Source of the DNA: Bacteroidota bacterium
Lineage (GTDB): Bacteria; Bacteroidota; Ignavibacteria; UBA10030; UBA8401
Length of the DNA stretch: 64,000 nt
Reading direction: 5' to 3'
Assembly (NCBI GenBank): GCA_035506275.1
Contig: DATJPT010000014.1
Coordinates: 23,736 to 87,735 of the forward strand
Shown: piece by piece, positions 27 to 21,760 of the stretch
Numbering within the stretch: the stretch's first letter is position 1
Layout of the letters: each line of letters opens with the position of its first letter
Notes under the pieces: generated by a model
What the model saw: only the letters and a program-made list of their open reading frames with translations
Database searches by the model: none
Told to the model about the DNA's origin: nothing
Position numbers and translations under genes: made by a program

Positions 27-605
27 TTGGCCGATGAGGATATTTTCACTTGGTTAAGATCTAAAAGTAAGCCTACCAAAGATGAAGTTTACCGCGCTTC
101 TACGGTCGTGGCTGATAGGTTATGCGGCGCTGTTGCGGACCCAATAATCCGCAATGCTCAGGAGAAACGGCAGCTCGCCTCAGTGAAGAAATGGCTTGAG
201 GATCGGGGCTATCGATATATTGACTTTCGTCATGGATTGAAGATGGAGAGTATGGAACCTGGGACATTCTCGTTCCGTTTTAACGTTCAGGTGAAGCAAA
301 CCGGTCGCAGTGAGCAAGTCAACATACCCATCGATATTATTATCAAGCCGCTCAAGGGCCCGAAAAGCCATTTACCCATTCTTGTTGAAGCAAAATCAGC
401 GGGCGATTTCGCTAACACAAACAAAAGGCGAAAAGAAGAGGCGATGAAGGTGGCTCAGTTACGGGCAACATACGGCAAAGGAGTCCAATTTATTCTGTTC
501 CTCTGCGGTTATTTTGACAGTGGTTACCTCGGTTACGAAGCCGCGGAAGGGATCGACTGGGTATGGGAACATCGGATGGAAGATCTCGCGAAGTTGGGAC
601 TTTAA
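27..605 (+). CDS. putative restriction endonuclease (PD-(D/E)xK-like); reading frame open to window start, so probably 5'-truncated
   Basis: D...ExK-like motif (PIDIIIKP...LVEAKS); stop at 603-605 lies 2 nt before the ATG of the adjacent adenine methyltransferase (R-M operon layout). Confidence 0.4.
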   Translation: MADEDIFTWLRSKSKPTKDEVYRASTVVADRLCGAVADPIIRNAQEKRQLASVKKWLEDRGYRYIDFRHGLKMESMEPGTFSFRFNVQVKQTGRSEQVNIPIDIIIKPLKGPKSHLPILVEAKSAGDFANTNKRRKEEAMKVAQLRATYGKGVQFILFLCGYFDSGYLGYEAAEGIDWVWEHRMEDLAKLGL

Positions 606-607
606 AT

Positions 608-2826: not shown

Positions 2827-2833
2827 TTTAGGC

Positions 2834-3017
2834 GCCTAACGGACCGGAGATAAGCTGCTGCGACGACCAGCCGCGACAAGGTAGCTCGTTGCGCGGACGT
2901 TCCAGTAGGGTGCTTCTAAGTCCGTCCCACAACGCCCGGCGAAATCGTCGACAGCTGGTTCGGTCAGTGAGCGCTTTTCGCCATCACGCTTTGCGTGACT
3001 TGAGCGACTGGTTAGGG
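2834..3017 (-). repeat. attC-like recombination site 1 (184 bp)
   Basis: left end GCCTAAC (RYYYAAC), right end GTTAGGG (GTTRRRY-like), imperfect internal inverted repeats with unpaired bases; right ~65 bp near-identical to the other copies. Confidence 0.7.
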
Positions 3018-3027
3018 CGCACACACG

Positions 3028-3885
3028 TCATGGTGGTTGGTGTAATAACAATTGAGCAAATTGAATTTCATTGCAAGCTTCTTGAAACCTGCCGGCAACT
3101 GCAAATTTTAATCTCGGATGGAAAGTCTTCGGACTAGTCCGAACAGGTAATTGCTTCAGGATATTTAATGTGAAGAAATGCGCACTTATATCATCTGCTT
3201 TTGTAAGAAGAACAATAATGCCAAAATGTGCATTTGGATAGTTTAATAGGTGTGGTTCGAACTTCTTCTGGAATTTATTCTTGATAATTGCGATTAAGCA
3301 TTTAATAGCTTCTTCATGATCATCAGATAGATAAGCACCTTGGCTTGGCACTAACTTCAGGTTTTTGCACTCTTCTAATTCCAGAGTTGGTGTGGTACAA
3401 TCAAGGAGCCAAATAGGTTGATCATTTGCATCAATAATGGCAACATCAGCGTTTGGAGGTGAGAGCCCTTTGCTTGGCTTCTGTAAGGGAAAATCAAATT
3501 TTATATTTAAGTTGGCCTTTTTTAATCGAGCCGCGAACCAGAGCTCTGATGCGGTGTCCCAGAATGAAGTGCTACCAATATTTGAAAGTTTATGACTTAT
3601 TTCCTTTTTGTCATTCTCAGTCAGCATTGGCAAAATTCTAGTTAGGCTCGCTTCGATATTTCTTAGATTCGTTCGGGGATCGTAAGCCGAGGGCGGGAAA
3701 TCGCTTGTGGCAACTAAGAGAGCTTCAAGCAAGTTGAATGGGCGATTTTTGTGACTTAGGGATAAGTCGATGATTCCATTGGATAACTGCGCTCGAATGC
3801 TTCCCCAATCTAAAATTTGATTAAGCTGGGGAAAACTCAGAGCGTTTCTTTGAGCGGTTTCTAGTTGTGAGTTAAATGCTGTCAT
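3028..3885 (-). CDS. cassette ORF, hypothetical protein (285 aa)
   Basis: stop 10 nt before attC-1 core; same orientation as all other cassette ORFs. Confidence 0.6.
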   Translation of the reverse strand: MTAFNSQLETAQRNALSFPQLNQILDWGSIRAQLSNGIIDLSLSHKNRPFNLLEALLVATSDFPPSAYDPRTNLRNIEASLTRILPMLTENDKKEISHKLSNIGSTSFWDTASELWFAARLKKANLNIKFDFPLQKPSKGLSPPNADVAIIDANDQPIWLLDCTTPTLELEECKNLKLVPSQGAYLSDDHEEAIKCLIAIIKNKFQKKFEPHLLNYPNAHFGIIVLLTKADDISAHFFTLNILKQLPVRTSPKTFHPRLKFAVAGRFQEACNEIQFAQLLLHQPP

Positions 3886-3927
3886 TTGTGCGCCCTAACG
3901 TACCGCGGTTAAGCTGCGGCGGCGAGA
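3886..3927 (-). repeat. half attC-like site (R''/L'' arm only)
   Basis: gcgccctaacgtaccgcggttaagctgcggcggcgag matches the left arm of the full elements, but no right arm; it fills the whole 42-bp gap between two cassette ORFs. Confidence 0.5.
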
Positions 3928-4620
3928 TTAACGCAAATACAGTTGATTTCTTGTCGTTAAATATTGGTAGACATAAGGTTTCTCCCTAAAGGCATCGACC
4001 TTAGATGTATCGACTTCATTCCCAAAATGGAGGAGAGTTGGTTTGATTCGAATTGAATCTATGCTCCATTTCATGTCCAGGGCATTCTTGTGTACTGCAG
4101 TGGGGAAGAAGGCATCGACGTCAAGTTCCTCAAAAGTGTTTGATGGTATTCGGAGAATTTGAGTTTGCTCACTCTCTTCGTTAGGGTCAAGATACCAATC
4201 CGTAAAGAGTCTGCCAGTAGACAAAAGAGTTCGATGTTTTCCAGTAAACCCTCTTTCCATAATTCCAAGGGGCTTGGCGAGAGCGGAATCGGCCATATAA
4301 ATAAAAGATTTGTCGTCCCGATTCTGATCATATTCAACATCACGTCCGTAGGCCGCCCAGACACTTGGGAGGAGCTCTACTCGGCGCGAGCTGGGATTCT
4401 TAATTGAGGCTTTCATTTCTACGATAAGAACGGAGGTCGATTGACCGTTAGTTTTCAGTGGATAGGCTCCAATTTTTTTCAACTCGAGGTGCGCAGTGAT
4501 ATTCGCTGGCTCGTTATACTCTTTGTACAAAAATATCGATGCAGCCCATATGCCAGCGACAATAATTCCAAGTGTCTGAACCCAAGTATTAATCTGTTCG
4601 CTAATTGATCGATTCGACAT
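3928..4620 (-). CDS. cassette ORF, hypothetical protein with N-terminal TM helix
   Basis: internal ATG at 4620 preceded by GGAGGA 9 nt upstream; the track start at 4647 is only 11 nt from the attC core, hence the revised start. Confidence 0.55.
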   Translation of the reverse strand: MSNRSISEQINTWVQTLGIIVAGIWAASIFLYKEYNEPANITAHLELKKIGAYPLKTNGQSTSVLIVEMKASIKNPSSRRVELLPSVWAAYGRDVEYDQNRDDKSFIYMADSALAKPLGIMERGFTGKHRTLLSTGRLFTDWYLDPNEESEQTQILRIPSNTFEELDVDAFFPTAVHKNALDMKWSIDSIRIKPTLLHFGNEVDTSKVDAFREKPYVYQYLTTRNQLYLR

Positions 4621-4657
4621 AAAGACAGTCCTCCGAATTAATTGCATGAATCTCGCC

Positions 4658-4832
4658 GCCTAACGGACCGGAGCTAAGCTGCGGCGACGTGCAACGTCGC
4701 CGCGGTAGTCATTCCGTGCGTGGTATGTCATGTCCGATAGTAACTCCCATTTGCGCGCACAAGATCGCCGACGGCTGGTTCCGTCAGTGAGCTCCAAAAG
4801 CGCCATCCGCCTTTAGCGTGACTTGAGGGATT
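4658..4832 (-). repeat. attC-like site 3 (right core degenerate, GTTATTC)
   Basis: GCCTAAC left core, conserved ctaagctgcggcg and ggctggttccgtcagtgag...cgtgacttgag blocks. Confidence 0.6.
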
Positions 4833-4864
4833 GGTTATTCCGCTAGCGCTTACTTTGTTATCAT

Positions 4865-5575
4865 CTACGGTGTCGGTGTGTACCCGCCACCACGAAGCCA
4901 ATGAACTTTCATATGATTCTTTACCAACTGGTCACCGATCTGAAAAGTGAGCTTTTCCATCCACTCTTCATCGAACACTTTGTCAAAGATCACCAAAAGT
5001 TGCTGAATCAGGTCATTGAGATTTTGAAAAACTAATTTCGCGTGTTTAGGACTCAGTTCAAACGGATTAAAAGGGATTTGTGTATGTGGCCAGTAATTTT
5101 TCCCATGTAACACTTTAAGGTCGGGAGCATAGTCATCTTCTGAAGAAATATAAAGTCCAAGGCGTTGCGCATCCAGATAAATTCCGGTTTTTGGATGTAC
5201 CCATGAATTCCTAATTCTTACAAGTTCAACGAAAGTTTGAAATACATTTCCAGCTTTATCAAAACCTTTGGTCGAGACTTCCACCCCGCAGAATTTTGGA
5301 GCCAATAACCACTTTTCTGGAAGGCTTAGTTTATCAATGGCTTTGAAAGTGTCATCACCAACTTTGCCAATGTAGAATTCGGAATAAACCTTATTGATCA
5401 ACGCCTCACTGGCAAAAACAGTAGAAAGAAGGCAATGCCGTGCAAAATAGGAAATTAGCTTCCCTTTTTGATCTTTTGTGAATTCTTCTTCAGCAAGTTC
5501 CAAGAATTTTTCCGCATCTCTGTAGTGCACGTAGAAGAAATTTAGCTCAATCTTAGCTTCTAGATTAGGAGGCAT
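4865..5575 (-). CDS. cassette ORF, hypothetical protein (236 aa)
   Basis: ORF between attC-like sites 3 and 4, same orientation. Confidence 0.55.
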   Translation of the reverse strand: MPPNLEAKIELNFFYVHYRDAEKFLELAEEEFTKDQKGKLISYFARHCLLSTVFASEALINKVYSEFYIGKVGDDTFKAIDKLSLPEKWLLAPKFCGVEVSTKGFDKAGNVFQTFVELVRIRNSWVHPKTGIYLDAQRLGLYISSEDDYAPDLKVLHGKNYWPHTQIPFNPFELSPKHAKLVFQNLNDLIQQLLVIFDKVFDEEWMEKLTFQIGDQLVKNHMKVHWLRGGGYTPTP

Positions 5576-5640
5576 GGATTAATCGTCTGTAAGTATGGTT
5601 TCTTTACCGAGCCGCCTGCGGTTTTGTAGAAGCGCAAGCG

Positions 5641-5792
5641 GTATAACAGACCGGAGCAAAGCTGCGGCGGTGAACGGCTGCCACCAGTTAGTTCGTTGCG
5701 GAGACCTTCCAGCCAGAAGTGCTAAATCCGGCCAACAACGCGCGACGAAATTGTCTACGGCTGTTTCCGCCCGCTTGAATACCGGTTAGTGC
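5641..5792 (-). repeat. attC-like site 4 (diverged; cores GTATAAC / GTTAGTG)
   Basis: retains ccggagcaaagctgcggcgg and inverted gcaagcgg/ccgcttga arms but is shorter and has degenerate cores. Confidence 0.5.
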
Positions 5793-5804
5793 GCAAAATA
5801 TTGA

Positions 5805-6206
5805 TCATGGTTGATTCATGCAATATTTATCCCACCATTTAGAGAGAATTCCGGGCGGAATCGATCCATTAAGGTCCCGTATTCTGCGAAGTTCTCGACA
5901 AATGCATTTCTTAACAGCTACAGTAGCGCTATCAACTTCATTAGGAAGATAGCCGTCTTCATCCACAAGCACATCATTATAGCTAGTCCAACAACGCTCA
6001 ACACGCACCTGCATGTTATTAAGCACATCGACTGGCACTAAATTTTCAAGTTGCGTTGCCTCCAATTGTAACTGCCGGTCAGAGTTGATCTTTGGATATG
6101 TTTCTTTAAATGCATTGTTGGCTTTCTTTCTATCTCTTAGAGTAGCCCAAAGATCAACGGCTTGCATTGTAGCCGATATGCCTGCGATGATTATTTCAGC
6201 TGCCAT
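5805..6206 (-). CDS. cassette ORF, hypothetical protein (133 aa)
   Basis: ORF between attC-like sites 4 and 5. Confidence 0.5.
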   Translation of the reverse strand: MAAEIIIAGISATMQAVDLWATLRDRKKANNAFKETYPKINSDRQLQLEATQLENLVPVDVLNNMQVRVERCWTSYNDVLVDEDGYLPNEVDSATVAVKKCICRELRRIRDLNGSIPPGILSKWWDKYCMNQP

Positions 6207-6239
6207 CAGAACCTCCCGTAAAATGTTTTTTTGTTTTGC

Positions 6240-6390
6240 GCCTAACGAACCGGAGCTAAGCTGCGGCGCGGTGCAGCCAGTTCCATGTAAAATATACGCG
6301 CGGCAGACGTCGCCTTTTCCCTCAAAAACTATTTTCGCGCGCGGCGAAGAGCTGGCCGCTGGTTCCGTCAGCTTGAGCTGCTGGTTAGGC
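6240..6390 (-). repeat. attC-like site 5 (151 bp)
   Basis: GCCTAAC ... GTTAGGC; conserved ccggagctaagctgcggcg block. Confidence 0.65.
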
Positions 6391-6419
6391 AGCGGCTCGA
6401 ATTAAGTGTTGTGCACCGG

Positions 6420-7184
6420 CTAGTACATGTTCTTGTAGATGCTTGAAATGTCCTCCGTGATTTCGAGATAAGGCTTGGCCACCGCAAACAAGGCACCGAC
6501 CGAAACCAACAAGAACGCCAGTACCATAAGGACGGCCGTGACCTGGTAATCGAACTGTGTCCATGCTTCAGCACCCGCCTTGAAGAGGATTGTCATGCTG
6601 ACACCAATGGAGGCAGCCAGACCCAAGTAGGCTTGCACAGTTATTTTTAGATATTTGTCAACTTCTGATTTAAGATAAGAAATGTAGTCTCGCTTCTTTT
6701 GGAACTCTGATAGTCTCTGGCAAACAGCGACTTGATTTTTTATGTCGGCGAAGAAAAACTGTGCGAGAAGATAACCGCACAGTGTTCCGGTGAAAATGAC
6801 AGACCACACTACATTGATTATGCCAAAGCCCATAAAGCGCATGACGCTGACACTTGATAGTAAATTGGCTAAAGACGTCAGGAGAGAATTGTAAAATAGG
6901 TGCGGAATCGTCGTGACGAGGAAGATTTCAATTGCGCTCGACAGAGCAATTATCAAAAATGCGATATTCCAATTTCGGGCAACGACAGGATCGATGGTAA
7001 GGTATACACTGCCATTCAATAATGGTTTGCTGAAGAAGTAGACAGCAAGGCAAAGATTAATGTAGAGAACAGCAAATGCCTTGTTCTGTGCGTATTGATT
7101 TGAAGCATAGCTCGGGTAAGAGATCACAATCGCAAGCAACGCTATATAAGAAATTGTCAATGGTACAATGCCGAAGAGGTTCAT
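6420..7184 (-). CDS. cassette ORF, polytopic membrane protein (~6 TM)
   Basis: hydrophobic segments throughout; start revised to ATG at 7184 because the track start (7244) lies inside attC-6. Confidence 0.55.
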   Translation of the reverse strand: MNLFGIVPLTISYIALLAIVISYPSYASNQYAQNKAFAVLYINLCLAVYFFSKPLLNGSVYLTIDPVVARNWNIAFLIIALSSAIEIFLVTTIPHLFYNSLLTSLANLLSSVSVMRFMGFGIINVVWSVIFTGTLCGYLLAQFFFADIKNQVAVCQRLSEFQKKRDYISYLKSEVDKYLKITVQAYLGLAASIGVSMTILFKAGAEAWTQFDYQVTAVLMVLAFLLVSVGALFAVAKPYLEITEDISSIYKNMY

Positions 7185-7211
7185 GGGTTCTCGAAATATT
7201 TGGGTTCTGCT

Positions 7212-7395
7212 GCCTAACGAACCGGAGTTAAGCTGCGGCGGCAAAAAGCCGCCGCAAGGTAGCTCGTTGCGCGGACGTATCCGTTGATCATATCTTTTCC
7301 AGCGTACTATCGCGCGGCGAAATCGTCGACGGCTGGTTCGGTCAGTGAGCGCTTTTCGCCATCACGCTTTGCGTGACTTGAGCGACTGGTTAGGC
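7212..7395 (-). repeat. attC-like site 6 (184 bp)
   Basis: GCCTAAC ... GTTAGGC; nearly identical to site 1 over both ends. Confidence 0.7.
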
Positions 7396-7403
7396 GGTTG
7401 CAC

Positions 7404-8126
7404 CTAGATCCAAATAGCGTATGGCTTGATTTGAAACGATTCTATTTTGGGTATTGGAAAAAGTATTCCGAAAACGTTCAACGGAATATTTTCACCTGAA
7501 TATCCGGAAAAAAAGAATGCTTCGTGACGCGAAAAAGAGTGAAGACTCCCTTCGCTACTAGGAAATTTAGAAATGCTTGCAGCCATAGCTAATGGGACCT
7601 TAATTTCTTTGAAATAATTGTCAGAATATTTGTAGTTGTCAAGTTTCTTGTCTTTTTCAAAGTAGACATAACCAACGGAATTGATATTTTCGATAGCTCG
7701 TCGTCGGTCGCCATAAAACTGGGGAGCGTCGAAAGTGGATTTAACAAGAATATATACGGGACCATCTGACAATTTAGTTGCTTTAGATGCCTCGCCGAGA
7801 TTATCAAATAGACTAGGAGGAGAAATAGAAGAGAGTTTGTTTACGAGCCCACCCAAAAGATTTTCCGCTTTAATTTCAATCCGGACACTCTCATTTATAG
7901 ATTTTGATTTTGTGAACTCCCCAGTGCCATCAAGTTCCAAAAGTCGGAAGAGCGTACCGAGTGCTTTTGCTAAACCTATTTTTGCACCCAGCTTGCCTGC
8001 ACTTTGTTTGCCTTCTCCCTTTGTAATTTCTACTGGAACCCCTTGCTCAATTTGAGCGTAGAGGCTTCGGATTCCTTCTTCGTCAAGGTAAATGAATCGG
8101 CGTGGTATTTCAAGCATAGAGATCAT
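7404..8126 (-). CDS. cassette ORF, hypothetical protein
   Basis: ATG at 8126 preferred; the track start at 8153 is a TTG abutting the attC. Confidence 0.5.
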   Translation of the reverse strand: MISMLEIPRRFIYLDEEGIRSLYAQIEQGVPVEITKGEGKQSAGKLGAKIGLAKALGTLFRLLELDGTGEFTKSKSINESVRIEIKAENLLGGLVNKLSSISPPSLFDNLGEASKATKLSDGPVYILVKSTFDAPQFYGDRRRAIENINSVGYVYFEKDKKLDNYKYSDNYFKEIKVPLAMAASISKFPSSEGSLHSFSRHEAFFFSGYSGENIPLNVFGILFPIPKIESFQIKPYAIWI

Positions 8127-8155
8127 GGTTCCGTCTATATGTTTTGAGTGCAACC

Positions 8156-8339
8156 GCCTAACGGACCGCAGCTAAGCTGCGGCAACGTGCAGCCAGTTCC
8201 ATGTAGAATATACGCGCGGCAGACATCGCCATTTCCCTAAATAAATTTTTCAGGCGCGCGGCGAAATCGCCAACGGCTGGTTCCGTCAGTGAGCGCTTTT
8301 CGCCATCACGCTTTGCGTGACTTGAGCCGCTGGTTAGGC
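8156..8339 (-). repeat. attC-like site 7 (184 bp)
   Basis: GCCTAAC ... GTTAGGC; conserved ends. Confidence 0.7.
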
Positions 8340-8360
8340 AGCCCATCGGTATGATACAAG

Positions 8361-8831
8361 CTATCTCTTATTCGGATTATGAAGAAGCATAGACACTTTT
8401 TCGACTACCCAAAAGAATAATGGAATCTCAGACATTAAAGCAAGCTGTCCAAAGATAGGGAAGTATGTCTTGAGATCCCCAGGACTTTCGTAGTGAAGAT
8501 AAATTGTAATCCCTATCCAAGCGAAGACAGGTAGCAGGCCGACAAAAATATAGAATACGATTCCGATAATGATTGTTGCGAGACTTTGTTGCTCAAACGT
8601 ACTCTTATCTTCCGGAAGACGGCGAGGCAGTAAGAGAATTACTCCGGCAACAAGCAAGGCAAAACCGGCTGATGTCGTCGAAAACTTCCCGCCAAAGAAT
8701 TCAAAATTGAGTCCAATCTCCCCTGTACCAGAAATACCTTTCCATAGGAAAGCTATCGAAGAAAGACATAGAATGGCACCGACAATGGTTCGGACTATTG
8801 TTATTTGTTTATTGAAATTTGATTCATCCAT
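8361..8831 (-). CDS. cassette ORF, small membrane protein (4 TM)
   Basis: hydrophobic helices; ATG at 8831. Confidence 0.5.
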   Translation of the reverse strand: MDESNFNKQITIVRTIVGAILCLSSIAFLWKGISGTGEIGLNFEFFGGKFSTTSAGFALLVAGVILLLPRRLPEDKSTFEQQSLATIIIGIVFYIFVGLLPVFAWIGITIYLHYESPGDLKTYFPIFGQLALMSEIPLFFWVVEKVSMLLHNPNKR

Positions 8832-8854
8832 ATGGCACAATGTTTTTTGGGGCT

Positions 8855-9040
8855 GCCTAACGGACCGGAGCTATGCTGCGGCGGCGAAGCGCCGCAGCGA
8901 CAGAATTCAGTCCGCGCGAGACGAGTCATGTCCAACAAGTAACAGGTTGTTTCGCGCGCATTGAATTATCGACGGCTGGTTCTGTCAGTGAGTGCTTGAA
9001 GCACCATGGCGTAGAGCGCCACTTGAGCGACGGGTTAGGG
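8855..9040 (-). repeat. attC-like site 8 (186 bp)
   Basis: GCCTAAC ... GTTAGGG; conserved ggctggttctgtcagtgag block. Confidence 0.65.
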
Positions 9041-9061
9041 CGCACCATATGAGAAATTTAA

Positions 9062-10472: not shown

Positions 10473-11651
10473 TTAAGTGCCGCTTGGCAAAGAGCTGGCA
10501 GAGAAGGAAATTTCATGAATCCCAGTATTTTCTTCACCTTCGACAAGCTTCTGAACTTCTTGTCCGAGGACATTGTAGATCTTGAGCGTCATAAAACTCC
10601 GAGTTGGGAGCGAGTATTGGATTGTCGTCGTTGGATTGAACGGATTTGGATAGTTCTGGCTAAGCTCGAATTGATTCGGGATCTGGTTTGTGTGACCCTT
10701 GATTGAAGTTATCATATCCGATAACGGTCGCATCCAAACATTATTCACCGAGGTTTGAACGAAGAGGTTCGAGCCCATTACGGCCAATGATATAACACTG
10801 GTATCAGTCAATCCGGCATTAACCGTCATCCAATTCGCGCCGTTATTAGTGGAAAGGAAAACTCCGTGATCGGTTCCCGCAAAAAGATTACCGTCACTGG
10901 CGGCAAGCACATTGACCGACGATATATTCGTCAATTCGGACCAGCTTGCACCGTTGTTAGTGGAAAGAAAAAGATCACCGTTTACTCCGGCAAAAAGATT
11001 ACTGCCACAGGCGACGAGTGCATAAACAGATATTTGCGGCACATAAGAGCCCGTTGGGTTTGGCAAACCGGAATCAACCTGGGCCCAACTGTTGCCATTG
11101 TTGGTTGATAAACAAACTCCTCCCTGCGTCGCGGCAAAAACGTTTGTTCCGATAAAAGCAAAGGATAAAATGGAATAATTCGTCAAACCATCATCGCTTT
11201 GCTGCAAGGATGAAAACATATCAGTCGATAACCAAATACCATATTCCAATGATCCCAAAAATATATTGGTGCCATTGGCTGCAATAGTATAGAGGTACTC
11301 ATCCGGAAGTTCATTTTTATAATTCCAAGTTGTGCCATTATCAGTTGACAACCAAATTTGATTATAGCCATATACTGTGACAAGATCGGTATTTATACCG
11401 ACAAGAGCGGTGACGTTATGATATCCGCTGTCCTGCAGGCTCCAGCTTAAGCCGTTGTTTGTAGAAAGATAAAAACCTTCTTTTGTCCCGACAAAAAGAT
11501 TTTTGCCGCCCGCTCCATTTGAACATGTGGTAAAGTATCTCCCGCCGAAGATACTGCTGTCTATGTCGGTTTTTTGCCACTGCGCGAACAATGGATTCAT
11601 ACCTGCAACGAAAAATGTAAAAAATGCTAAGACGTAATTTTTAATCTTCAT
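10473..11651 (-). CDS. T9SS-targeted BNR/Asp-box repeat protein; T9SS C-terminal domain interrupted by an in-frame TAA (intact gene would be 10413..11651)
   Basis: signal peptide, repeated S-x-D/N-x-G-x-x-W motifs, NYPNPFNPTTTIQY T9SS motif; minus-strand reading continues after the stop as FYRLQSGEFVQTRKMELLK*. Confidence 0.7.
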   Translation of the reverse strand: MKIKNYVLAFFTFFVAGMNPLFAQWQKTDIDSSIFGGRYFTTCSNGAGGKNLFVGTKEGFYLSTNNGLSWSLQDSGYHNVTALVGINTDLVTVYGYNQIWLSTDNGTTWNYKNELPDEYLYTIAANGTNIFLGSLEYGIWLSTDMFSSLQQSDDGLTNYSILSFAFIGTNVFAATQGGVCLSTNNGNSWAQVDSGLPNPTGSYVPQISVYALVACGSNLFAGVNGDLFLSTNNGASWSELTNISSVNVLAASDGNLFAGTDHGVFLSTNNGANWMTVNAGLTDTSVISLAVMGSNLFVQTSVNNVWMRPLSDMITSIKGHTNQIPNQFELSQNYPNPFNPTTTIQYSLPTRSFMTLKIYNVLGQEVQKLVEGEENTGIHEISFSASSLPSGT

Positions 11652-11787
11652 TTATTGATCTCCTTACCCGGTAAAATTATTTTAAATGGCCGCTGGGCCC
11701 GAACACGATCAAAAGTATCGAGAGCGGATTTCAAGTGTTGAATTCCAGCCCCTTTCTGATTTGAGGGGCCGAATGGAGTTTTATTGT

Positions 11788-12171
11788 TTAATGGGGCGTA
11801 TTCGATGCCGCGCTTGAAAAGAGCAGAACCAAAAGAAGAACGGTGACCCCAACCGATCCGGCAACCCAAGCGATGGTAGTTTGGTTTTCGGCCTCTTTCG
11901 CTTTCAGGTTCCAGTCCTGTGCCGCGCGGTCATAAGCACTCTTGGCGACCGGGGGATACTCCATGGGCGGCGCGATCACCTTTCCGCGGTTCGCATCAAA
12001 CTGGTCCTGCCAGTATTCGAACCAGATAGTTTCATTCGTCTCCGTGAGGGCTGGTCGATGTTTGTATGAAATGCCAGCATGCTCTGAAGCAGTGCACGAC
12101 ATGAGCAGGAGAGATGCAATAAGCATCGGTGCCAGGAAACGTGTTGTTTCAGGAATAACTTTGGACATCAT
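11788..12171 (-). CDS. hypothetical lipoprotein/membrane protein
   Basis: N-terminal signal with Cys (LLLMSCTAS) and C-terminal TM helix. Confidence 0.4.
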   Translation of the reverse strand: MMSKVIPETTRFLAPMLIASLLLMSCTASEHAGISYKHRPALTETNETIWFEYWQDQFDANRGKVIAPPMEYPPVAKSAYDRAAQDWNLKAKEAENQTTIAWVAGSVGVTVLLLVLLFSSAASNTPH

Positions 12172-12608
12172 ATCGAACCTCCATAATTGTTTTGATAGAT
12201 TGGTTGATTAGGTTTTTGTACAGCGATTTTCACTTTTAGAAAATAAAAAGGGCGTGAACTCTACACGCTCTCAACCCAAGCCCTGTCACAGGCCCATTCT
12301 GAAAGCGCTTCGAGCCACGCCCTTTTCTAGGGCGCAGTTCGAGCAACCGTTTCAGAATTGTGAATAGTGACAGTATTCGGGTTGAAACAGTAGCCGAAGC
12401 TACGCTATGTTTTTATTTCTTTATCTAGATATTTACGATCTCCTTTTGTTTTACGTCGGTAATTTATAGGAATTAGGAGCCAACCGCAACCCGAAGAAGA
12501 GGAATATTTTGCTGAATATTTTGCTGAATTCATCGTCAAGCAAAGTTGTCGGAAGCGGCAATTTCTCCCACCTTATTTTCTATATAGGTCGATTGGTATT
12601 CTTAAACG

Positions 12609-12896
12609 ATGTCGATTCAAACATATAAAAAGATTCCGAATCTTCTCAGGAAGTATCGTAGGATCCGGGGTCTCAATCAAAAAGAGATCGCTGCCATTCT
12701 GGGCCTGAGGAGTGCCAGCCTTGTATCGAGGTGGGAGAAAGGTCGCTGCATTCCAAGTCTCATGAACGCGATCCGGCTAGCGATCCTCTGCCGGAGCATG
12801 GTCGATGCGCTCTTCTTCGATCACGTGAGAGCGCTGCGCGTGGAAATCCGTGATCGGGAGGAAAGGGTTCTCGGGACAAAGAATTCCAACCAATGA
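12609..12896 (+). CDS. XRE-family HTH transcriptional regulator
   Basis: LNQKEIAAILGLRSASLVSRWEKG HTH_XRE-like motif. Confidence 0.6.
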   Translation: MSIQTYKKIPNLLRKYRRIRGLNQKEIAAILGLRSASLVSRWEKGRCIPSLMNAIRLAILCRSMVDALFFDHVRALRVEIRDREERVLGTKNSNQ

Positions 12897-13573
12897 ACGG
12901 AATAGCGCCACAAAATGATATCAGGAAAATGGAAGACGGGGGATGGTATTGGGTCTCAAAACCAGTGATCCAGGAATATGCCCCGAAAGTCGGGTTTCTT
13001 TCTGCGTGCGTTTACCACCTCTTGGCCAGCATGGCCGACGAGAACCAGAGTTGCTATCCGTCTCAGCGCTACATCGCGGAAAAACTCGGCTGCTGCCGGT
13101 CATCCGTGTCGAGAGCCGTGAGAAAGCTAAAGGATCAGGGCCTTATCAGATCCAACGGAAAGGGGAGGGATCACTCCGTTTATCAGCTTCTGAAAGTCAG
13201 AAGTTGCACCAGTGCAATTCAGGTGTCGCACCGGTGCAATTCAGATGATGCACCAGTTGACACTAACAATACTAGTTTAACAAGAAATAATAACAACAAT
13301 GTTGTTAGTGTAAAAAAAATTAACCGACGAACGGATTCTAATGAAGAATTCAAACCGCAGACGAAAGAGGAACTCCTGGCGTTGGAAATCGCTCAGACAC
13401 TCGGTGATCCAAGGAATCCCCGGAAATATCTGCAATATACCAAGCGTTATGCCGAATCACTGCTCAGGGAGGTGTTATCTCAGGTAAAACAAACCCCGGA
13501 AGAGAAAATCAAAAAGAGCCGCGTCGCGCTCTTCGTCTACCTCGTAAACCACTATGCAAAAAGATCAGCTTAA
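12893..13573 (+). CDS. winged-helix/HTH_36-like protein (phage or plasmid replication-associated type)
   Basis: YPSQRYIAEKLGCCRSSVSRAVRKLKDQGLI motif typical of replication-initiator-type HTH domains; Asn-rich linker; overlaps neighbours by 4 and 20 nt (operon). Confidence 0.5.
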   Translation: MNGIAPQNDIRKMEDGGWYWVSKPVIQEYAPKVGFLSACVYHLLASMADENQSCYPSQRYIAEKLGCCRSSVSRAVRKLKDQGLIRSNGKGRDHSVYQLLKVRSCTSAIQVSHRCNSDDAPVDTNNTSLTRNNNNNVVSVKKINRRTDSNEEFKPQTKEELLALEIAQTLGDPRNPRKYLQYTKRYAESLLREVLSQVKQTPEEKIKKSRVALFVYLVNHYAKRSA

Positions 13574-14057
13574 TATTTTGGCGATCAACCCTGGCAGCCG
13601 GTATCTCGGCATCGCCATCTTCGTCGGAGACGAACTCCGCGATTGGGCGGTAAAGCTTGCCAGGCGGGAGAATATTCGGGAGATGATTTCGGAATATATA
13701 AATCAGTATGGTGTTCACGTTGTCGCGTTCAAGAAATTCCATCCTTCGAGAAGCTCCCGTGATCTTCGCATGATCATCTCTTTGATGCAGGAGGTCGCAA
13801 AAAAGGCCGGACTCGCGCTTCGTGAGTACTCCATCGGCGAAGTAGAAGAGGCATTGCTGCCGGAGAAGAGAAAGAACAAGCAGCTCCTGATGCAAGAAGT
13901 CGTCGCTCGATATCCCTTCCTATCGAACGAGCTTCAGCGGGAAGCGAAAAACAAAAACCCTTATCTGATTCGGATGTTTGAAACCGTCGGGATTGGGAAG
14001 GTTTGTATGAGTGAACTTGAGACTGGTGTCCGAAAGGTCGAAAAAAAACAATTATGA
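13554..14057 (+). CDS. RuvC-like resolvase paralog, catalytically degenerate
   Basis: ILAINPGSRYLGIAIF aligns with RuvC N-terminal motif but has Asn in place of the first catalytic Asp; second acidic residue and the H/D pair also missing. Confidence 0.5.
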   Translation: MQKDQLNILAINPGSRYLGIAIFVGDELRDWAVKLARRENIREMISEYINQYGVHVVAFKKFHPSRSSRDLRMIISLMQEVAKKAGLALREYSIGEVEEALLPEKRKNKQLLMQEVVARYPFLSNELQREAKNKNPYLIRMFETVGIGKVCMSELETGVRKVEKKQL

Positions 14058-14063
14058 GCGAAA

Positions 14064-14561
14064 ATGAAGAAAGCAAAAAAGATACTCGCAATTGATCCAG
14101 GGACAAAACATCTCGGTTTCGCCTTGCTAGAAGGATCTGCGCTGATTCACTACGGGGTGAAGACAATTTCGGATGGGAGAACAGGGCAATTCCGTTTGGT
14201 CCAAGGGAGAGCGATCGTTTCAAGATTGATTGAAGACTTCAATCCGGATATCCTGTTTGTCGAGAAAACATATTTTGGAAATAACAAGGACTCGAAGACC
14301 TTGAATCAGCTTACAGAGCAGATTCGAAGAATGGGATTGAAAAAGGGGGTTATAGTCCAAACCATCGCAACGAATTCGGTGAGAAAAATTGTGTGTGGTA
14401 ACGGGGAGGCAGGTAAAGAGGATGTCGCGAAAGCGATGGTATCGAAATATCCGGAGCTTCGGCCATATCTCACTTCGGACAGGCGATGGAAGGAAGAATA
14501 TCACCGGAATATGTTTGACGCGGTGGCACTTGGATTGGCCGGCTGCGGATTGGTCAAATAA
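14064..14561 (+). CDS. ruvC: crossover junction endodeoxyribonuclease RuvC-like (catalytic residues intact)
   Basis: ILAIDPGTKHLGFALL (Asp), ILFVEKTYFGNN (Glu), HRNMFDAVALGLA (His/Asp); 165 aa. Confidence 0.6.
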   Translation: MKKAKKILAIDPGTKHLGFALLEGSALIHYGVKTISDGRTGQFRLVQGRAIVSRLIEDFNPDILFVEKTYFGNNKDSKTLNQLTEQIRRMGLKKGVIVQTIATNSVRKIVCGNGEAGKEDVAKAMVSKYPELRPYLTSDRRWKEEYHRNMFDAVALGLAGCGLVK

Positions 14562-14778
14562 CAAGGCCGATTTGATTTTAGAAGTTATCGACATGCAAAA
14601 AATGGAAACCATGGTTAGATAAGTTATGCGCGGCCTGAATATCATCCATTTGAATCCTGCCTTGAATCCTGCCTTGGGACCCATGCCTTGATTATTTGAA
14701 TGTGTTTGTTTAAGTTTCCGACTGGGGCGGGGGGCTGATCCCACCTCAAAACTCACTTTCACTTATCATGGAGATCGT

Positions 14779-14946
14779 ATGCCATCGACGGGAGATACTT
14801 GCTCTGTTTCCGGGATATACGAGGTTGTTAACCACATAGCCCATCCTCATCAGATCACAATGGTCGCGGGGAAAGAGTTTCCGCCGTGCCGGGAATGCCA
14901 CCAAAAAGTCGTGTACAGGCTAGTGCGAGCAACGCAACATTGATTT
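14779..14946 (+). CDS. small (55 aa) putative zinc-ribbon protein, not in ORF track
   Basis: MPSTGDTCSVSGIYEVV...GKEFPPCRECHQKVVYRLV; a Cys pair and FPPC-x-x-C motif are all I can see; weak SD. Confidence 0.25.
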
Positions 14947-15350: not shown

Positions 15351-15908
15351 ATGATTGGACTCACGGTCTTTACATTATTTGTTTTTTTTGTTATCGCGTT
15401 GATACGCCCCAAAAAACCGGTGATCGTCTCGCACTGGCATAATCTGATCCAGGGGCTTCAATTCTCGGTCGAAGACTACTACAATGCGCTCGACGCGGTG
15501 ATCGAGAAGCGAAAAGTTCCGGAAGTAAAGGTCGAGGTCACGCATTATCGTGAGGGTGGAATCGCGTCGGCGAAAAGGATGTACTTGAGGATTGGCCGGC
15601 GAGATCACATTTTCGATGTCTGTGCCGCTCCGTTTGGGACGGATTTCTTTGTTTCTTGGTGGCTGGGGCAAAACATGAAAACCATGGGCGCTATCATCAA
15701 CGGGCTCCCGTTCATCGGCCCTCCGCTGATCAGATTGTTCAGTCCCGAAACGTTCTACCGCATAGACACGGCTCTCATGTTTCAGGATTCGGTGCATCAG
15801 GCCGTTCTTGAAGTTCTCGACGACAGGATCAAGGGGCAGGGACTCCGTTCGATGACGGAATCGGAACGGAAACCGATCATGCGCGAACTCTTCAAACAGA
15901 GGAGGTAG
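15351..15908 (+). CDS. membrane-anchored hypothetical protein (gene 1 of ATPase module)
   Basis: single N-terminal TM helix; ends 4 nt before the next gene. Confidence 0.45.
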   Translation: MIGLTVFTLFVFFVIALIRPKKPVIVSHWHNLIQGLQFSVEDYYNALDAVIEKRKVPEVKVEVTHYREGGIASAKRMYLRIGRRDHIFDVCAAPFGTDFFVSWWLGQNMKTMGAIINGLPFIGPPLIRLFSPETFYRIDTALMFQDSVHQAVLEVLDDRIKGQGLRSMTESERKPIMRELFKQRR

Positions 15909-15912
15909 GCAG

Positions 15913-18900
15913 GTGGGAGACTTTTATGCGGAAGAATTAACAAAGCAATTCTACGACTGGGAAGTGAAGGGGAGGGGCTGGCTCTTGTGGGATTCGACGA
16001 TTGAGCTCGAGCCTCCGTTCCAGCCGTTCCAATTCCATGCATCGCGCAGGGACGATCTCTTCATCGACGACGGCCGCAAATCGACCTTCCTCAGTAATCT
16101 GGCCGATGATCTTAAAAAGGCGTTCGGGAATGGGCCAAAGATGGAGCTGCCAGCGGAACCGGCGGCGGAGATCATGCCGACCGTCGATTCCGATGAGAGC
16201 GAATTGATAGAATTCGCCGTCACGCTCCCTTCCAACAGCGAATTGTCGCACGAATACGCCGAGCATTTTCTCCTTAGCCTAAGTTCCTGCTCTTCTCCCG
16301 TCAGCTTTGAGATTCTCGGAACGGAGGGTGCGATCATCGTCCAGTTCAGTTGCCGCGAGCGGGACGTTCGGTACGTGAAGCAGCAAATCAGGTCTTTCTT
16401 TCCCGATGCAACCGTCCAGGAGAAAAAATCATTTGCCGCAATCCTTGCCGAAGGTCACACCGTAATCGCCGATTGCGGGTTGAGCGATGAGTTCATGCGG
16501 CCGCTCCGCACGTATAAGAATTTCAGTCCCGACACGCTCACCACGATCTTCGGCGCTCTGGAGAATCTGGGACAGGGCGAGGTCGGCCTCGTGCAGGTTC
16601 TTTTCAAAGCGGCCGAGGCTCCCTGGGCATTGAGCATTCTGCGGGCGGTGCGGAACAACGACGGCAGTTCCTTTTTTATCGACGCGCCGGAAATGGTTGA
16701 TCTTGCGGAACAAAAAATCGACCGGCCCCTCTTCTCGGTGATTCTCCGCCTTGTCGGACAAAGCCTTTCAAGCGAACGCGCCTGGGACATCGTGAGAGAT
16801 CTTTACGCTGGGCTCCATCCGTTCACGGATCCTGCCTCCAATGAACTGATTCCCCTCACGAACGATGACTACGACGATGCGCTGCATTTCTATGACGTGA
16901 AAAATCGCACGTCCCACCGCAGCGGCATGCTTTTGAACAGCGACGAATTGCTCGGTCTCGTTCATCTTCCCTCGCCTTCGATCCATTCCTCAAAGCTCAA
17001 GCGGGATTCGGGGAAGACAAAAGCGGTTCCTTCCATTGCACGGGGGCACGCATTTGTTCTCGGTGAAAACCTCAACCGCGACTTAAAGACGAAAGCTTCT
17101 TTAAGCGTCGATCAAAGGCTCCGTCATGTTCATATCATTGGCAAAACGGGGACCGGAAAATCCACCCTCCTTCTCAATATGATCAAACAGGACATCGAAG
17201 GCGGAAGAGGAGTCGCCGTGCTCGACCCGCACGGGGACCTCGTGGAGAAGATCGAAGAAATTGTTCCCGAGAGAAGATTGGATGACGTGATTCTCTTTGA
17301 TCCAAGCGATGCCGGATATCCTGTCGGCTTCAACATCCTTGAGGCCCGTTCCGACATAGAGCAGACCGTTCTCTCATCCGATCTTACGGAACTCTTCCGG
17401 CGCTTCTCGACGAGCTGGGGAGACCAGATGACAACCGTCTTATCGAACGCGATTGAAGCGGTGCTCGGCAGCATGGAAGGTGGGACGCTGCTAGAGCTGA
17501 AACGGTTCCTCTTGGAAAATGATTTTCGCCGCTCTATCCTCCGGGCCGGAGCCGATCCTGCCGTTATTTACTTTTGGGAGAAAGAGTATCCGCTTTTAAG
17601 AGGTGGCTCACAGATATCGATCATCACGCGGCTCGACGCGATTCTGCGTTCAAAGATCGTCCGCAATATCGTGGCGCAGAGGGAAGGGCTTGATTTCAGG
17701 AAGATCATCGAGACCGGAAAAATATTCCTGGCAAAGCTCCCGCAGGGAATCATAGGCGAAGAAAATTCTTACCTTCTCGGCTCGCTCATAGTTTCCAAGT
17801 TGCACCAGGCGGTCATGGGCAGGCAGGCAATGAGCGTAAGCGAACGCACGCCGTTCTTTCTGTATATCGATGAGTTCCAGAATTTTGCGACTCCTTCCAT
17901 GATCTCGACGCTTTCAGGTTCACGAAAATACGGTTTTGGTTTGGTCTTGGCGCATCAGGACCTTCACCAGATCGCGGACGCAGCCTTGGAGAATTCGGTG
18001 ATCACGAACCCTTCGACACGCATTTGTTTTGCGTTGGGGGACAACGATGCCCAAAAGCTGGCATCGGGTTTCACTCACTTCGACGCGACGGATTTGATGA
18101 ATCTCGGCGTGGGGGAGGCAATCGTCCGGGTGGAGCGGAGCGACTATGATTTCAATCTCAAAACCTACGAAGTAACTCCGGTAGCGCCCGAGACGGCTTC
18201 AACGAGGCGTGAGAAAATAATCGCATTTACGAGAGAGCGGTACGGGCGCAAAGTGTCGCCTGTGGAGACCCAGAAGCCTCAAACCGAAACACCGCAACCG
18301 CAAAGTACCCCGGTCGAAATAAACCGAGCGCCGCAGCCGCGAGTCAAACCGAAAGAGGAGGACACTCCGAAACCGAGGCCAACTCCACCGCCTCAACGAG
18401 ACTCGATTCCTTCCGGCGATCTTACGGCACGCAAGGACATTTCGCAGCACCGGTATTTCCAAACCTTGGTCAAAAAGATGGCCGAACAACGCGGCTATAA
18501 GGCCGTGATTGAAGAGCCGAGCGGTGACGGCGGGCGGGTGGATGTCGGTTTGGAACGGGATGGAAAACGTATTGCCGTTGAAATATCTGTCACGACAGGA
18601 GATGTACAAGAGCTTCATAATATAGAGAAGTGCCTCAAGGCGGGATATAATCCGGTCGTCGTTTGTTCAACGGACAAGAAGAACCTTGAGGCGATTAGGA
18701 AGCTGATGACAGAGAAGCTGCCACCTTCTGACCAGAGCAAAGTGCTTTTCTTCGAGCCTGAAGGGCTGTTCCTTTTTCTTGATAAACCGGGGGCTGTGGA
18801 GGTCACGAGCGAACAGAAGTTTAAGGGATACCGTGTCAAAGTGCACTATCAGGCCGTTTCCGAAAGTGAGAATAGGAGGAGGCGTGAAACGGTTGCCGAG

Positions 18901-18945
18901 GTCATCGGCCAAACATTAAAACGAATAAAGAAGGGTGCAAAGTGA
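15913..18945 (+). CDS. FtsK/HerA/TraD-superfamily P-loop ATPase with unknown N-terminal domain, Pro-rich linker and C-terminal Hjc-like PD-(D/E)xK-fold domain
   Basis: Walker A IIGKTGTGKST, VAVLDPHGD, Walker B FFLYIDEFQNF, GSRKYGFGLVLAHQD; linker PQTETPQPQSTP...PRPTPPP; C-terminal GRVDVGLERDGKRIAVEISVT resembles the Hjc core (VDLVA...IEVK). Confidence 0.6.
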   Translation: MGDFYAEELTKQFYDWEVKGRGWLLWDSTIELEPPFQPFQFHASRRDDLFIDDGRKSTFLSNLADDLKKAFGNGPKMELPAEPAAEIMPTVDSDESELIEFAVTLPSNSELSHEYAEHFLLSLSSCSSPVSFEILGTEGAIIVQFSCRERDVRYVKQQIRSFFPDATVQEKKSFAAILAEGHTVIADCGLSDEFMRPLRTYKNFSPDTLTTIFGALENLGQGEVGLVQVLFKAAEAPWALSILRAVRNNDGSSFFIDAPEMVDLAEQKIDRPLFSVILRLVGQSLSSERAWDIVRDLYAGLHPFTDPASNELIPLTNDDYDDALHFYDVKNRTSHRSGMLLNSDELLGLVHLPSPSIHSSKLKRDSGKTKAVPSIARGHAFVLGENLNRDLKTKASLSVDQRLRHVHIIGKTGTGKSTLLLNMIKQDIEGGRGVAVLDPHGDLVEKIEEIVPERRLDDVILFDPSDAGYPVGFNILEARSDIEQTVLSSDLTELFRRFSTSWGDQMTTVLSNAIEAVLGSMEGGTLLELKRFLLENDFRRSILRAGADPAVIYFWEKEYPLLRGGSQISIITRLDAILRSKIVRNIVAQREGLDFRKIIETGKIFLAKLPQGIIGEENSYLLGSLIVSKLHQAVMGRQAMSVSERTPFFLYIDEFQNFATPSMISTLSGSRKYGFGLVLAHQDLHQIADAALENSVITNPSTRICFALGDNDAQKLASGFTHFDATDLMNLGVGEAIVRVERSDYDFNLKTYEVTPVAPETASTRREKIIAFTRERYGRKVSPVETQKPQTETPQPQSTPVEINRAPQPRVKPKEEDTPKPRPTPPPQRDSIPSGDLTARKDISQHRYFQTLVKKMAEQRGYKAVIEEPSGDGGRVDVGLERDGKRIAVEISVTTGDVQELHNIEKCLKAGYNPVVVCSTDKKNLEAIRKLMTEKLPPSDQSKVLFFEPEGLFLFLDKPGAVEVTSEQKFKGYRVKVHYQAVSESENRRRRETVAEVIGQTLKRIKKGAK

Positions 18946-21322: not shown

Positions 21323-21760
21323 TCATCGTTCAGTCCTACCGTCGCCTGAAAGAATCTCCGTAAAGAATAGCTCCAGCCTTGTTTTGAGTTTTCCTGTCGG
21401 AAAACTTTCATCTCTTTCCCACCGCCCCAGCGTTCCCGGATCGACGTTCAATTCAAGGGCCAACGCCCGCTGGCTCATTCCACGGACGTGCCTGTACGTG
21501 ACGATCTTCTGCCCGGTCGTTTGTCCGTGGAAGAGCGGAGGGGTGTAGCCGAGGAATTGTGTTAGCCTAGGTATCAGGTGCACCATGGGATCTGTCCGGG
21601 CCCTCTCCCAATCATAAACCGAGGTTTCAGCGACTTTCCAGAATTTGAACTACTTCTCGTCGCAGAAGTCCCAGCTCAAGCTGCTGCTTATTGATATTAT
21701 CTCCCCAGGTTTTAGAATTTGTCGAAATTCCCGAGGTTTTCGAGAAACGAGGATGATATA
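21323..21760 (-). pseudogene. tandem-HTH (XRE-type) regulator, frameshifted copy
   Basis: C-terminal half (MVHLIPRLTQFLGYT...) intact; N-terminal HTH is homologous to the 41-kb copy but carries a 1-nt insertion creating an in-frame TAG. Confidence 0.55.

Follow-up and report, generated by a model that had tools for sequence, protein, structure and literature searches.

A RuvC-like resolvase gene and a linked pseudo-nuclease paralog in the putative replication module of a widespread integrative element

RuvC-family resolvases are textbook symmetric homodimers with two identical active sites that make two mirror-image cuts. What, then, is the use of a RuvC-like nuclease gene that stands directly beside a paralog without most of the catalytic residues? 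This question is raised by two adjacent open reading frames (ORFs) in a 64,000-nucleotide stretch of a Bacteroidota bacterium (Ignavibacteria; GenBank assembly GCA_035506275.1, contig DATJPT010000014.1, positions 23,736 to 87,735 of the forward strand), which we refer to as the window and number from its first letter. The original prediction, made from the letters alone, saw here a tandem pair of RuvC-like resolvases, one intact and one with active-site substitutions, and suggested an element-encoded module, possibly a heterodimeric junction resolvase. The two ORFs of about 165 amino acids (aa) at 13554-14561 are indeed adjacent on the plus strand and contain the motifs that were quoted for them:

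13554..14057, plus strand: ORF A, predicted RuvC-fold pseudo-nuclease, 167 aa, with N12, K60, R140 and E143 replacing D, E, N/H and D
14064..14561, plus strand: ORF B, predicted RuvC-like junction endonuclease, 165 aa, with D11-E67-N149-D152 intact

ORF A and ORF B are separated by 6 nt, and the ATG of ORF A is located 20 nt inside the preceding gene, which encodes an HTH_36 protein. A and B are paralogs whose homology goes well beyond chance, with 24% identity over 151 residues (BLASTP, E=5e-13) and family profiles that can be aligned over their whole length (profile-profile comparison, E=5e-40). Source annotations (NCBI, JGI) name the B-family proteins 'crossover junction endodeoxyribonuclease RuvC' and A a 'hypothetical protein'. 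No other RuvC-like ORF was found in the window besides A and B. Since A and B share one frame within the window, a fusion by stop-codon read-through was also considered; it was rejected, as the two genes are in one frame in about 12 of 45 loci, which is near the one-third chance level.

B scores 46.8 bits against Pfam RuvC (PF02075), above the gathering score of 22.2, and matches PHROG 159 ('RuvC-like Holliday junction resolvase') over residues 5-161 (3.3e-20, 73 bits). ORF A has no match in Pfam, NCBIfam or PHROG, while a few distant members of its family do match Pfam RuvC (P0023 and the upstream gene of locus L008). AlphaFold2 monomer models were built from the family alignments. They reach a mean predicted local distance difference test (pLDDT) of 88 and a predicted template-modelling score (pTM) of 0.85 for A, and a pLDDT of 91 and a pTM of 0.88 for B. 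Bacterial RuvC structures (7xhj, 4ep4, 1hjr, 6lw3) are the best matches of both models in the PDB with template-modelling (TM) scores of 0.66-0.81, A alone reaching 0.71-0.80; the E-values of the top matches are 2e-8 for A and 1e-11 for B. The next matches of both models are Ydc2, MOC1, RuvX and the pseudonuclease TEFM. With predicted viral structures as library, A again matches RuvC. The structure check that had been proposed for both ORFs therefore places RuvC on top in either case. According to its model A is a structural member of the RuvC fold, and according to its residues (see below) not an active RuvC. Within the fold, hhalign gives A a score of 241 against the B family, 219 against a clade of single-copy genes, 164 against the other clade of upstream genes and 84 against canonical or viral RuvC. 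By these profile scores A appears closest to the element's own B and the single-copy clades and far from canonical and viral RuvC.

The catalytic residues separate the two proteins. In the B family D11, E67 and D152 are each conserved at 98-100%, and D, E and D are retained together in 120 of 123 relatives. The third catalytic position is N149 (97% conserved), which precedes the last Asp by three residues (register N-M-F-D-A-V-A); some sister clades of B have His there. We take the corresponding residue to be D138 in E. coli RuvC and H143 in T. thermophilus RuvC, and the canonical register to be D/H-A-A-D-A-L-A. The assignment of N149 rests on this assumed motif register, with alignments to hidden Markov models (HMMs) of B ending at residue ~127, short of N149. 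The tetrad D11-E67-N149-D152 is canonical at three of four positions and has a conserved Asn at the D/H position, a residue set which seems compatible with nuclease activity. The statement that the downstream copy keeps Asp, Glu and His/Asp thus holds for D11, E67 and D152; the His that was quoted for it (H147 in HRNMFDAV) is variable and not at the catalytic position, which belongs to N149.

A tetrad D-E-(D/H)-D is absent from A, which reads N12-K60-R140-E143. The A family was examined in about 170 sequences including 50%-identity cluster representatives; an exhaustive profile search gave 95 representatives at E<=1e-30. Its first position varies among N, S, V, I, A, L and T (N in 88, S in 55, hydrophobic or other residues in 12, D in 2). 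At the Glu position 166 of 171 sequences (97%) have K, the third position is R and less often K (R140 in ORF A), and the last is E in 158 of 171 (92-96%; E143 in ORF A). Assignment of the Lys-for-Glu exchange to K60 needs a gapless strand alignment, as MAFFT moves it by one residue; no acidic residue lies at or beside the Glu position in either alignment. The upstream copy had been described as having Asn for Asp and none of the other acidic residues. This is correct for N12, K60 and R140 but not for the last position, where E143 is kept opposite D152. Two basic side chains together with a Glu in place of metal-binding carboxylates are predicted to disable a two-metal nuclease in A. Further conserved residues of the family are S68 and Y137, which like K60 and E143 reach >=93%, as well as R66 (84%) and H63 (64%) in a HPSRSS loop. 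Since the replacing residues are themselves conserved, the site of A was probably remodelled for another purpose and is not simply drifting. The family-wide residues and both models agree on what the original prediction had proposed in essence, an intact RuvC-like nuclease beside a catalytically disabled paralog of the same fold.

The ratio of nonsynonymous to synonymous substitution rates (dN/dS) of A is 0.21-0.34 in comparison with three relatives at 66-77% identity. For B it is 0.23 in the single pair with unsaturated dS. A is hence under purifying selection and, judged by these rates, seems to be a maintained pseudo-nuclease.

How firmly are the two genes linked? A scan with one genome per species yielded 389 relatives of B. 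Among B-family genes of >=190 bits, all except that of locus L045 have a RuvC-like paralog directly upstream, and nearly all also have homologs of the two genes which precede A in the window, encoding an XRE-family regulator and the HTH_36 protein. The resulting four-gene module XRE, HTH_36, A and B is present at 45-64% identity in about 40 species-level metagenome-assembled genomes (MAGs) that are labelled as at least 14 phyla. Labels of the carriers include Bacteroidota, Kryptoniota, Saccharibacteria, Paceibacterota, Planctomycetota (with anammox lineages), Desulfobacterota or 'delta proteobacteria', Nitrospirota, Aminicenantes, Aerophobetes, Armatimonadetes, Actinomycetota and one betaproteobacterium; bacteria of the candidate phyla radiation are among them. 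All carriers are MAGs; chromosome-level ones among them are OY970341.1, OY969888.1 and OY780964.2. Binning of mobile DNA into MAGs is error-prone and single labels are uncertain, the breadth being independent of any one label. Cultured phage and plasmid collections contain no close relatives, and IMG/VR only one. In the reverse direction, when metagenome contigs were searched with A, 65 of the 71 loci that could be evaluated (92%) had B behind it.

In 38 genomes carrying both genes A diverges faster than B, with a mean pairwise identity of 41.5% vs 57%. The two distance matrices are correlated nevertheless (Mantel r=0.64, reached by 0 of 2000 permutations), and the A clade and the B clade of a neighbour-joining tree contain matching groups of loci.

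Related elements show other arrangements of the same genes. L047 and L049-L052 are examples of loci in which the initiator gene is followed by just one RuvC-like gene, with D-E-N/H-D. L048, L053 and L054 have two copies in tandem, and D-E-x-D is retained in both. In L026, L032, L044, L046, L059 and L061 a normal B is paired with an upstream paralog of a different clade, which has D, E and D but a variable third position. The single-active and double-active arrangements are presumed to be intermediate states. The simplest history would be a duplication of the element's resolvase gene followed by specialisation and then by loss of catalysis in the upstream copy of the largest clade.

The genes upstream of the pair form one operon with it, and the HTH_36 gene contains a putative origin:

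12609..12896, plus strand: XRE-family helix-turn-helix (HTH) regulator, first gene of the operon (Pfam HTH_3 2.2e-7, HTH_31)
12893..13573, plus strand: HTH_36 winged-helix protein, initiator or replisome organizer-like (Pfam HTH_36 2.6e-14)
13191..13257, no strand: candidate iterons of an origin, three direct repeats of 22/23 nt with an exact spacing of 22 nt (repeat search)
13257..13314, no strand: AT-rich stretch with the inverted repeat 13257-13269 / 13302-13314 (13 nt, 92% complementary)

The co-transcription with replication-type HTH proteins that had been proposed for the pair is consistent with this layout, a regulator and an initiator-like gene lying directly upstream. The order XRE/HTH_3, HTH_36, A, B is identical in all six gene-called contexts, which come from Bacteroidota, Ignavibacteriales, Schekmanbacteria and Deltaproteobacteria, and an XRE homolog precedes the module in almost every related locus. 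A overlaps the HTH_36 gene by 20 nt in five of the six contexts and by 35 nt in the remaining one. The HTH_36 protein matches PHROG 270, 428 and 678 ('replication initiation protein') and 186 ('DnaD-like helicase loader') at 1e-11 to 3e-16. The iterons lie inside its gene in the part coding for the linker, directly followed by the AT-rich inverted repeat. Comparable tandem repeats of 22-23 nt were detected mid-gene in 13 of 42 homologous HTH_36 loci by Tandem Repeats Finder (TRF). Iterons and inverted repeat together (13191-13314) are a candidate for a replication origin of the lambda-O type. Tested for hairpins, the origin region showed a signal too weak to rely on, with z below -2 in 14 of 37 loci against mononucleotide shuffles only.

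Two perfect 12-nt tandem duplications flank the operon, GAATATTTTGCT twice at 12502-12525 upstream of the XRE gene and TTGAATCCTGCC twice at 14650-14673 downstream of B. They could be operator or binding sites. Promoter and terminator scans remained at chance level, and Rfam families and tRNAs were not found in the window. The gap of 790 nt after B holds a 54-aa ORF (14779-14943) that is not conserved in the related loci.

Is B simply the housekeeping ruvC of this genome, accompanied by a decaying duplicate? The name RuvC given to B-family proteins by the NCBI and JGI pipelines would fit. However, B reaches only 36.4 bits on TIGR00228 (cut-off 100.65), matching model positions 1-125 only, and 41.8 bits on NF000711 (cut-off 163); A matches neither model. 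Canonical RuvCs from the tail of the same genome scan, which served as controls (L067, L073, L075, L088), score 110-136 bits over the full length of TIGR00228. The neighbours of B are a repressor, an initiator and a translocase-like ATPase and not ruvA or ruvB, and the four-gene module is embedded in a low-GC island. The same module recurs in the MAGs of at least 14 phylum labels at the identities given above. A for its part is intact, under purifying selection and accompanied by about 170 relatives with the same substitutions. We thus regard a housekeeping origin of the pair as scarcely credible. The proposal of an element-encoded module distinct from the housekeeping ruvC is borne out by the low score of B in comparison to canonical RuvCs and by the distribution of the module.

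The surroundings also point to a mobile element. Downstream of the pair two further genes belong to the context:

15351..15908, plus strand: 185-aa protein with a hydrophobic N-terminal segment, no Pfam match
15913..18945, plus strand: 1010-aa FtsK/HerA/TrwB-like P-loop ATPase with a weak Mrr-like match at the C-terminus (Pfam TrwB_AAD_bind 9.3e-12)

The ATPase further matches DUF87 (1.4e-7) and Mrr_cat (0.036) in Pfam, partially TraD/VirD4-like models in NCBIfam, and PHROG 5156 of unknown function (2.5e-63). It is always preceded by a protein of ~185 aa with hydrophobic N-terminus; homologs of the 185-aa protein are located directly upstream of an ATPase homolog in L008, L010-L014, L034, L035, L039 and L057. 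About half of the loci encode an ATPase homolog no more than 10 kb away from the module. A large serine recombinase is encoded upstream on the opposite strand in about one third of the loci and a tyrosine recombinase in a few. With the recombinases of the relatives as queries neither type was detected in the window, which may mean that this copy of the element has become immobile or that its integrase is encoded elsewhere. The guanine-plus-cytosine (GC) content is 0.41-0.48 per 2-kb bin from ~2 to 42 kb (0.54 in one bin) with flanks of 0.50-0.55. Based on the genes of the operon, the ATPase nearby, the recombinase close to related modules and the low-GC island, the pair seems to belong to the replication module of an integrative element.

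Two other identities of the region were rejected. A prophage is not indicated, as nine ORFs at 33.2-40.9 kb and a 597-aa ORF at 19.5 kb have no structural matches in PHROG, no virion genes were recognised near the pair with this database, and among the phage collections only IMG/VR holds a close relative. A defence system is not indicated either, since A, B, the 185-aa and the 597-aa protein have no match in PADLOC; the ATPase gives a generic mad8/HerA-type match there and nothing more. Distant homologs of the ATPase are found in large Bacillus phages, including G gp156 and 0305phi8-36 ORF201; it may serve in the transfer, packaging or partition of DNA.

What could an intact and a disabled RuvC paralog do together? 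In the RuvC dimer each of the two active sites cuts on its own, one after the other, and in Mus81-Eme1 an active nuclease is combined with a non-catalytic partner (PMC2670506). As RuvC-family enzymes work as dimers, the most likely mechanism is a heterodimer of A and B with one active site that arose by duplication and subsequent inactivation of one subunit, a model whose chances we put at about even. It is suggested by the linkage of A and B, their co-divergence, the repeated occurrence of tandem paralogs and the selective upkeep of the dead copy. In this model A would have arisen by duplication of the element's own RuvC-like gene, its metal-binding residues having been replaced although selection still maintains it, and B would be an active RuvC-type nuclease for branched DNA. 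The heterodimer would grip four-way or other branched DNA with both subunits and cut with one. It would leave a single nick, or cut a fork or D-loop asymmetrically, where a homodimeric resolvase makes paired cuts, and it would spare a cruciform the double-strand break caused by a symmetric resolvase. In the replication of the element it may serve restart, a switch from theta to sigma replication or the debranching of intermediates; forks that have stalled or reversed could be among its substrates, or it could set off concatemeric replication. The analysis shows the paralogy of A and B, their fold, the loss of catalytic residues, purifying selection, the operon, the wide conservation and the co-divergence; we infer heterodimer formation, nicking and the role in replication. 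Phage resolvases have been implicated in replication restart, and the SPP1 resolvase G44P was proposed to act in fork processing and concatemeric replication (PMC3485210).

A bolder version would have A-B as a half-dead RuvC dimer, a structure-specific nickase which triggers the replication of an undescribed, widespread family of integrative elements. Bound to its iterons, the initiator would extrude or expose a cruciform or other branched structure at the origin in its own gene. Cutting of one strand would then provide a 3'-OH primer or a theta-to-sigma switch without a double-strand break. The element would be made up of the serine recombinase, the XRE regulator, the initiator with its origin, the RuvC pair and the FtsK/HerA-like translocase. 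We offer this version tentatively and consider it less likely than not.

Several observations weigh against a heterodimer. A occurs without adjacent B in 6 of 71 metagenome loci from at least three lineages, and some elements carry B alone. Seemingly each protein can persist without the other in cis, and A may also have a role independent of B. In the metagenome loci L120 and L121 A is 66-68% identical to A of the window and B only 47-48%, a mismatch not expected for a tightly co-adapted interface. Covariation between A and B, calculated as mutual information with average product correction over 90 non-redundant pairs (effective number of sequences ~70), consists of hub-like, clade-driven signals only and speaks neither for nor against an interface. 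Moreover the strong conservation of K60, R140 and E143 could equally fit a separate DNA-binding function of an A homodimer. As a side observation, the mismatch in L120 and L121 suggests recombination between elements that reshuffles A and B genes.

These points lead to the alternative that A and B act separately, B homodimers being a conventional Holliday-junction resolvase and A homodimers a DNA binder that does not cut. A may then clamp or protect junctions or forks, bind the origin or help the initiator. The A-only loci and B-only modules and the occasional mismatch in divergence are in line with this; so are the remodelled site with its conserved K, E and R/K, as expected for binding of DNA phosphates, and the start of A within the initiator gene in all six contexts. 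The fold matches even include a precedent for a RuvC-fold pseudonuclease as DNA clamp, as TEFM has been described as a pseudonuclease sliding clamp (PMC9950373). However, B follows A in the great majority of loci and the pair co-diverges. In addition, tandem paralogs that arose or persisted repeatedly are easier to explain by specialisation of subunits within one dimer. Separate action is thus a possible reading, to which we lend limited credence.

A could also be a regulatory 'poison' subunit that keeps junction cleavage in check by drawing B, or the RuvC of the host, into dimers that are dead or half-dead, be it to lower the toxicity of a broad-specificity resolvase or to shield the replication intermediates of the element. 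The shared fold makes a RuvC-type dimer surface plausible, A is translated first in the operon, and exchange of the first catalytic Asp to Asn is the classical route to a RuvC that binds junctions and does not cut them. This idea overlaps with the heterodimer and differs from it in purpose only. Since A is closest to B and not to canonical RuvC, pairing with the host RuvC is unlikely, and we consider regulation by poisoning improbable as a whole. Still less probability falls to a different, metal-independent chemistry of A based on its conserved Lys, Arg/Lys, Glu, His and Ser. The high conservation of K60, S68, Y137 and E143 and the lesser one of R66 and H63 would suit an active site of a new kind. 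On the other hand position 1 varies freely, A shows no similarity to other enzyme families in Pfam, NCBIfam, PHROG or PADLOC, and we know of no precedent for metal-independent chemistry in an RNase H-like fold.

How does the pair compare with known systems? Bacterial RuvC (E. coli, T. thermophilus, D. radiodurans) has the same fold as A and B. B shares with it the N-terminal DPGT, the Glu at the end of a strand followed by an aromatic residue and the C-terminal (N/H)xxDA(V/L)A. Unlike RuvC, B stays at 36 bits vs the cut-off of 100.65, does not align to the models in its C-terminal third, carries Asn as its third catalytic residue and is part of a replication operon of a putative mobile element, together with A, which is devoid of three of four catalytic residues. 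Phage RuvC-like resolvases are similar in that B matches PHROG 159 and the RuvC of Lactococcus phage bIL67 (4ktw, TM ~0.70) and, as in many phages, is situated in a replication module beside a gene of the replisome organizer type. To our knowledge, no phage resolvase is accompanied by a conserved dead paralog.

The heterodimers of the XPF family (Mus81-Eme1/Mms4, XPF-ERCC1) likewise consist of paralogs of which one is conserved in spite of missing catalytic residues, and are presumed to descend from a homodimer; one active site and a preference for asymmetric or nicked branched DNA would be expected here, too (PMC2670506). Like these, A and B are paralogs, adjacent ones, one without the catalytic residues and both conserved. 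They differ from the XPF family, which is eukaryotic and of unrelated fold, and the physical heterodimer of A and B is a matter of inference. TEFM also has a RuvC-like RNase H fold without catalytic residues that is kept for the handling of DNA (PMC9950373). It differs from A by being a homodimeric clamp that works with RNA polymerase, by an added helix-hairpin-helix domain and by having no active paralog encoded beside it, and it shows no specific sequence relationship to A. The HTH_36 gene resembles the genes of lambda O-type initiators and phage replisome organizers in carrying iterons and an AT-rich inverted repeat, the candidate origin, inside. Unlike in lambda O-type modules, no gene for a helicase or helicase loader follows; the RuvC-like pair takes this place.

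Nothing relevant was found in the literature on a RuvC pseudo-paralog, a tandem RuvC pair or an element of this kind, and the pairing of A and B is apparently undescribed. What seems to be new is a RuvC-like resolvase with a linked pseudo-nuclease paralog in the replication module of an undescribed, widespread integrative element. If A and B form a heterodimer, the active and the dead RuvC would be a bacterial RuvC-fold counterpart of Mus81-Eme1 and XPF-ERCC1, and the single-copy, double-active and active-plus-dead states would provide a comparative series for the evolution of an asymmetric from a symmetric nuclease. Being as small as ~2 x 165 aa, such a structure-specific nickase might also find use as a reagent. 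If the proteins act separately, the finding reduces to a new family of pseudonucleases and an ordinary element-encoded resolvase. The four-gene module would also be well suited to trace, in uncultured phyla, a class of integrative elements that has so far gone unrecognised.

Bacteroidota-type copies of the element have in common a BNR-repeat protein with a Por_Secre_tail domain, i.e. sorted by the type IX secretion system (T9SS), and a small protein immediately upstream, both divergent from the operon (10473-12171 in the window, 6548-8767 in L003, 4071-5904 in L006). They look like conserved cargo.

Further upstream, at 2827-9050, consecutive minus-strand ORFs of unknown function are separated by eight to nine copies of a repeat, ~190 nt long in the six that were aligned. 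The copies start near 2827, 3886, 4651, 5634, 6233, 7205, 8149 and 8848. Most of them begin with GCCTAAC (RYYYAAC), and four of the six aligned copies end with GGTTAGG(C/G), which is close to GTTRRRY. The ends are mutually inverted and the interior is partly self-complementary; one copy folded as single-stranded DNA gave z=-1.95. The region looks like an integron-type array of gene cassettes with attC sites, with no integrase in the window.

Within the low-GC island a 287-nt repeat is present in three copies of 78-92% identity (21348-21634, 31930-32216, 41019-41305). Two of them carry a minus-strand gene for an 87-aa HTH_3 protein, and these proteins are 91% identical. The repeats may mark duplicated regulatory modules or boundaries of elements. 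At the left edge of the window (27-2200) a restriction-modification pair is encoded, consisting of a XamI-type endonuclease (RE_XamI 8.7e-84, cut by the window start) and an Eco57I/N6-type methylase; the GC content there is 0.51 vs ~0.43 immediately downstream. Finally, six to seven intergenic copies of a 29-nt palindromic motif, TCGTTCCCAACGGGACGTTGGGAACGAGA, are distributed over 41964-47074 and resemble repetitive extragenic palindromic (REP) elements.

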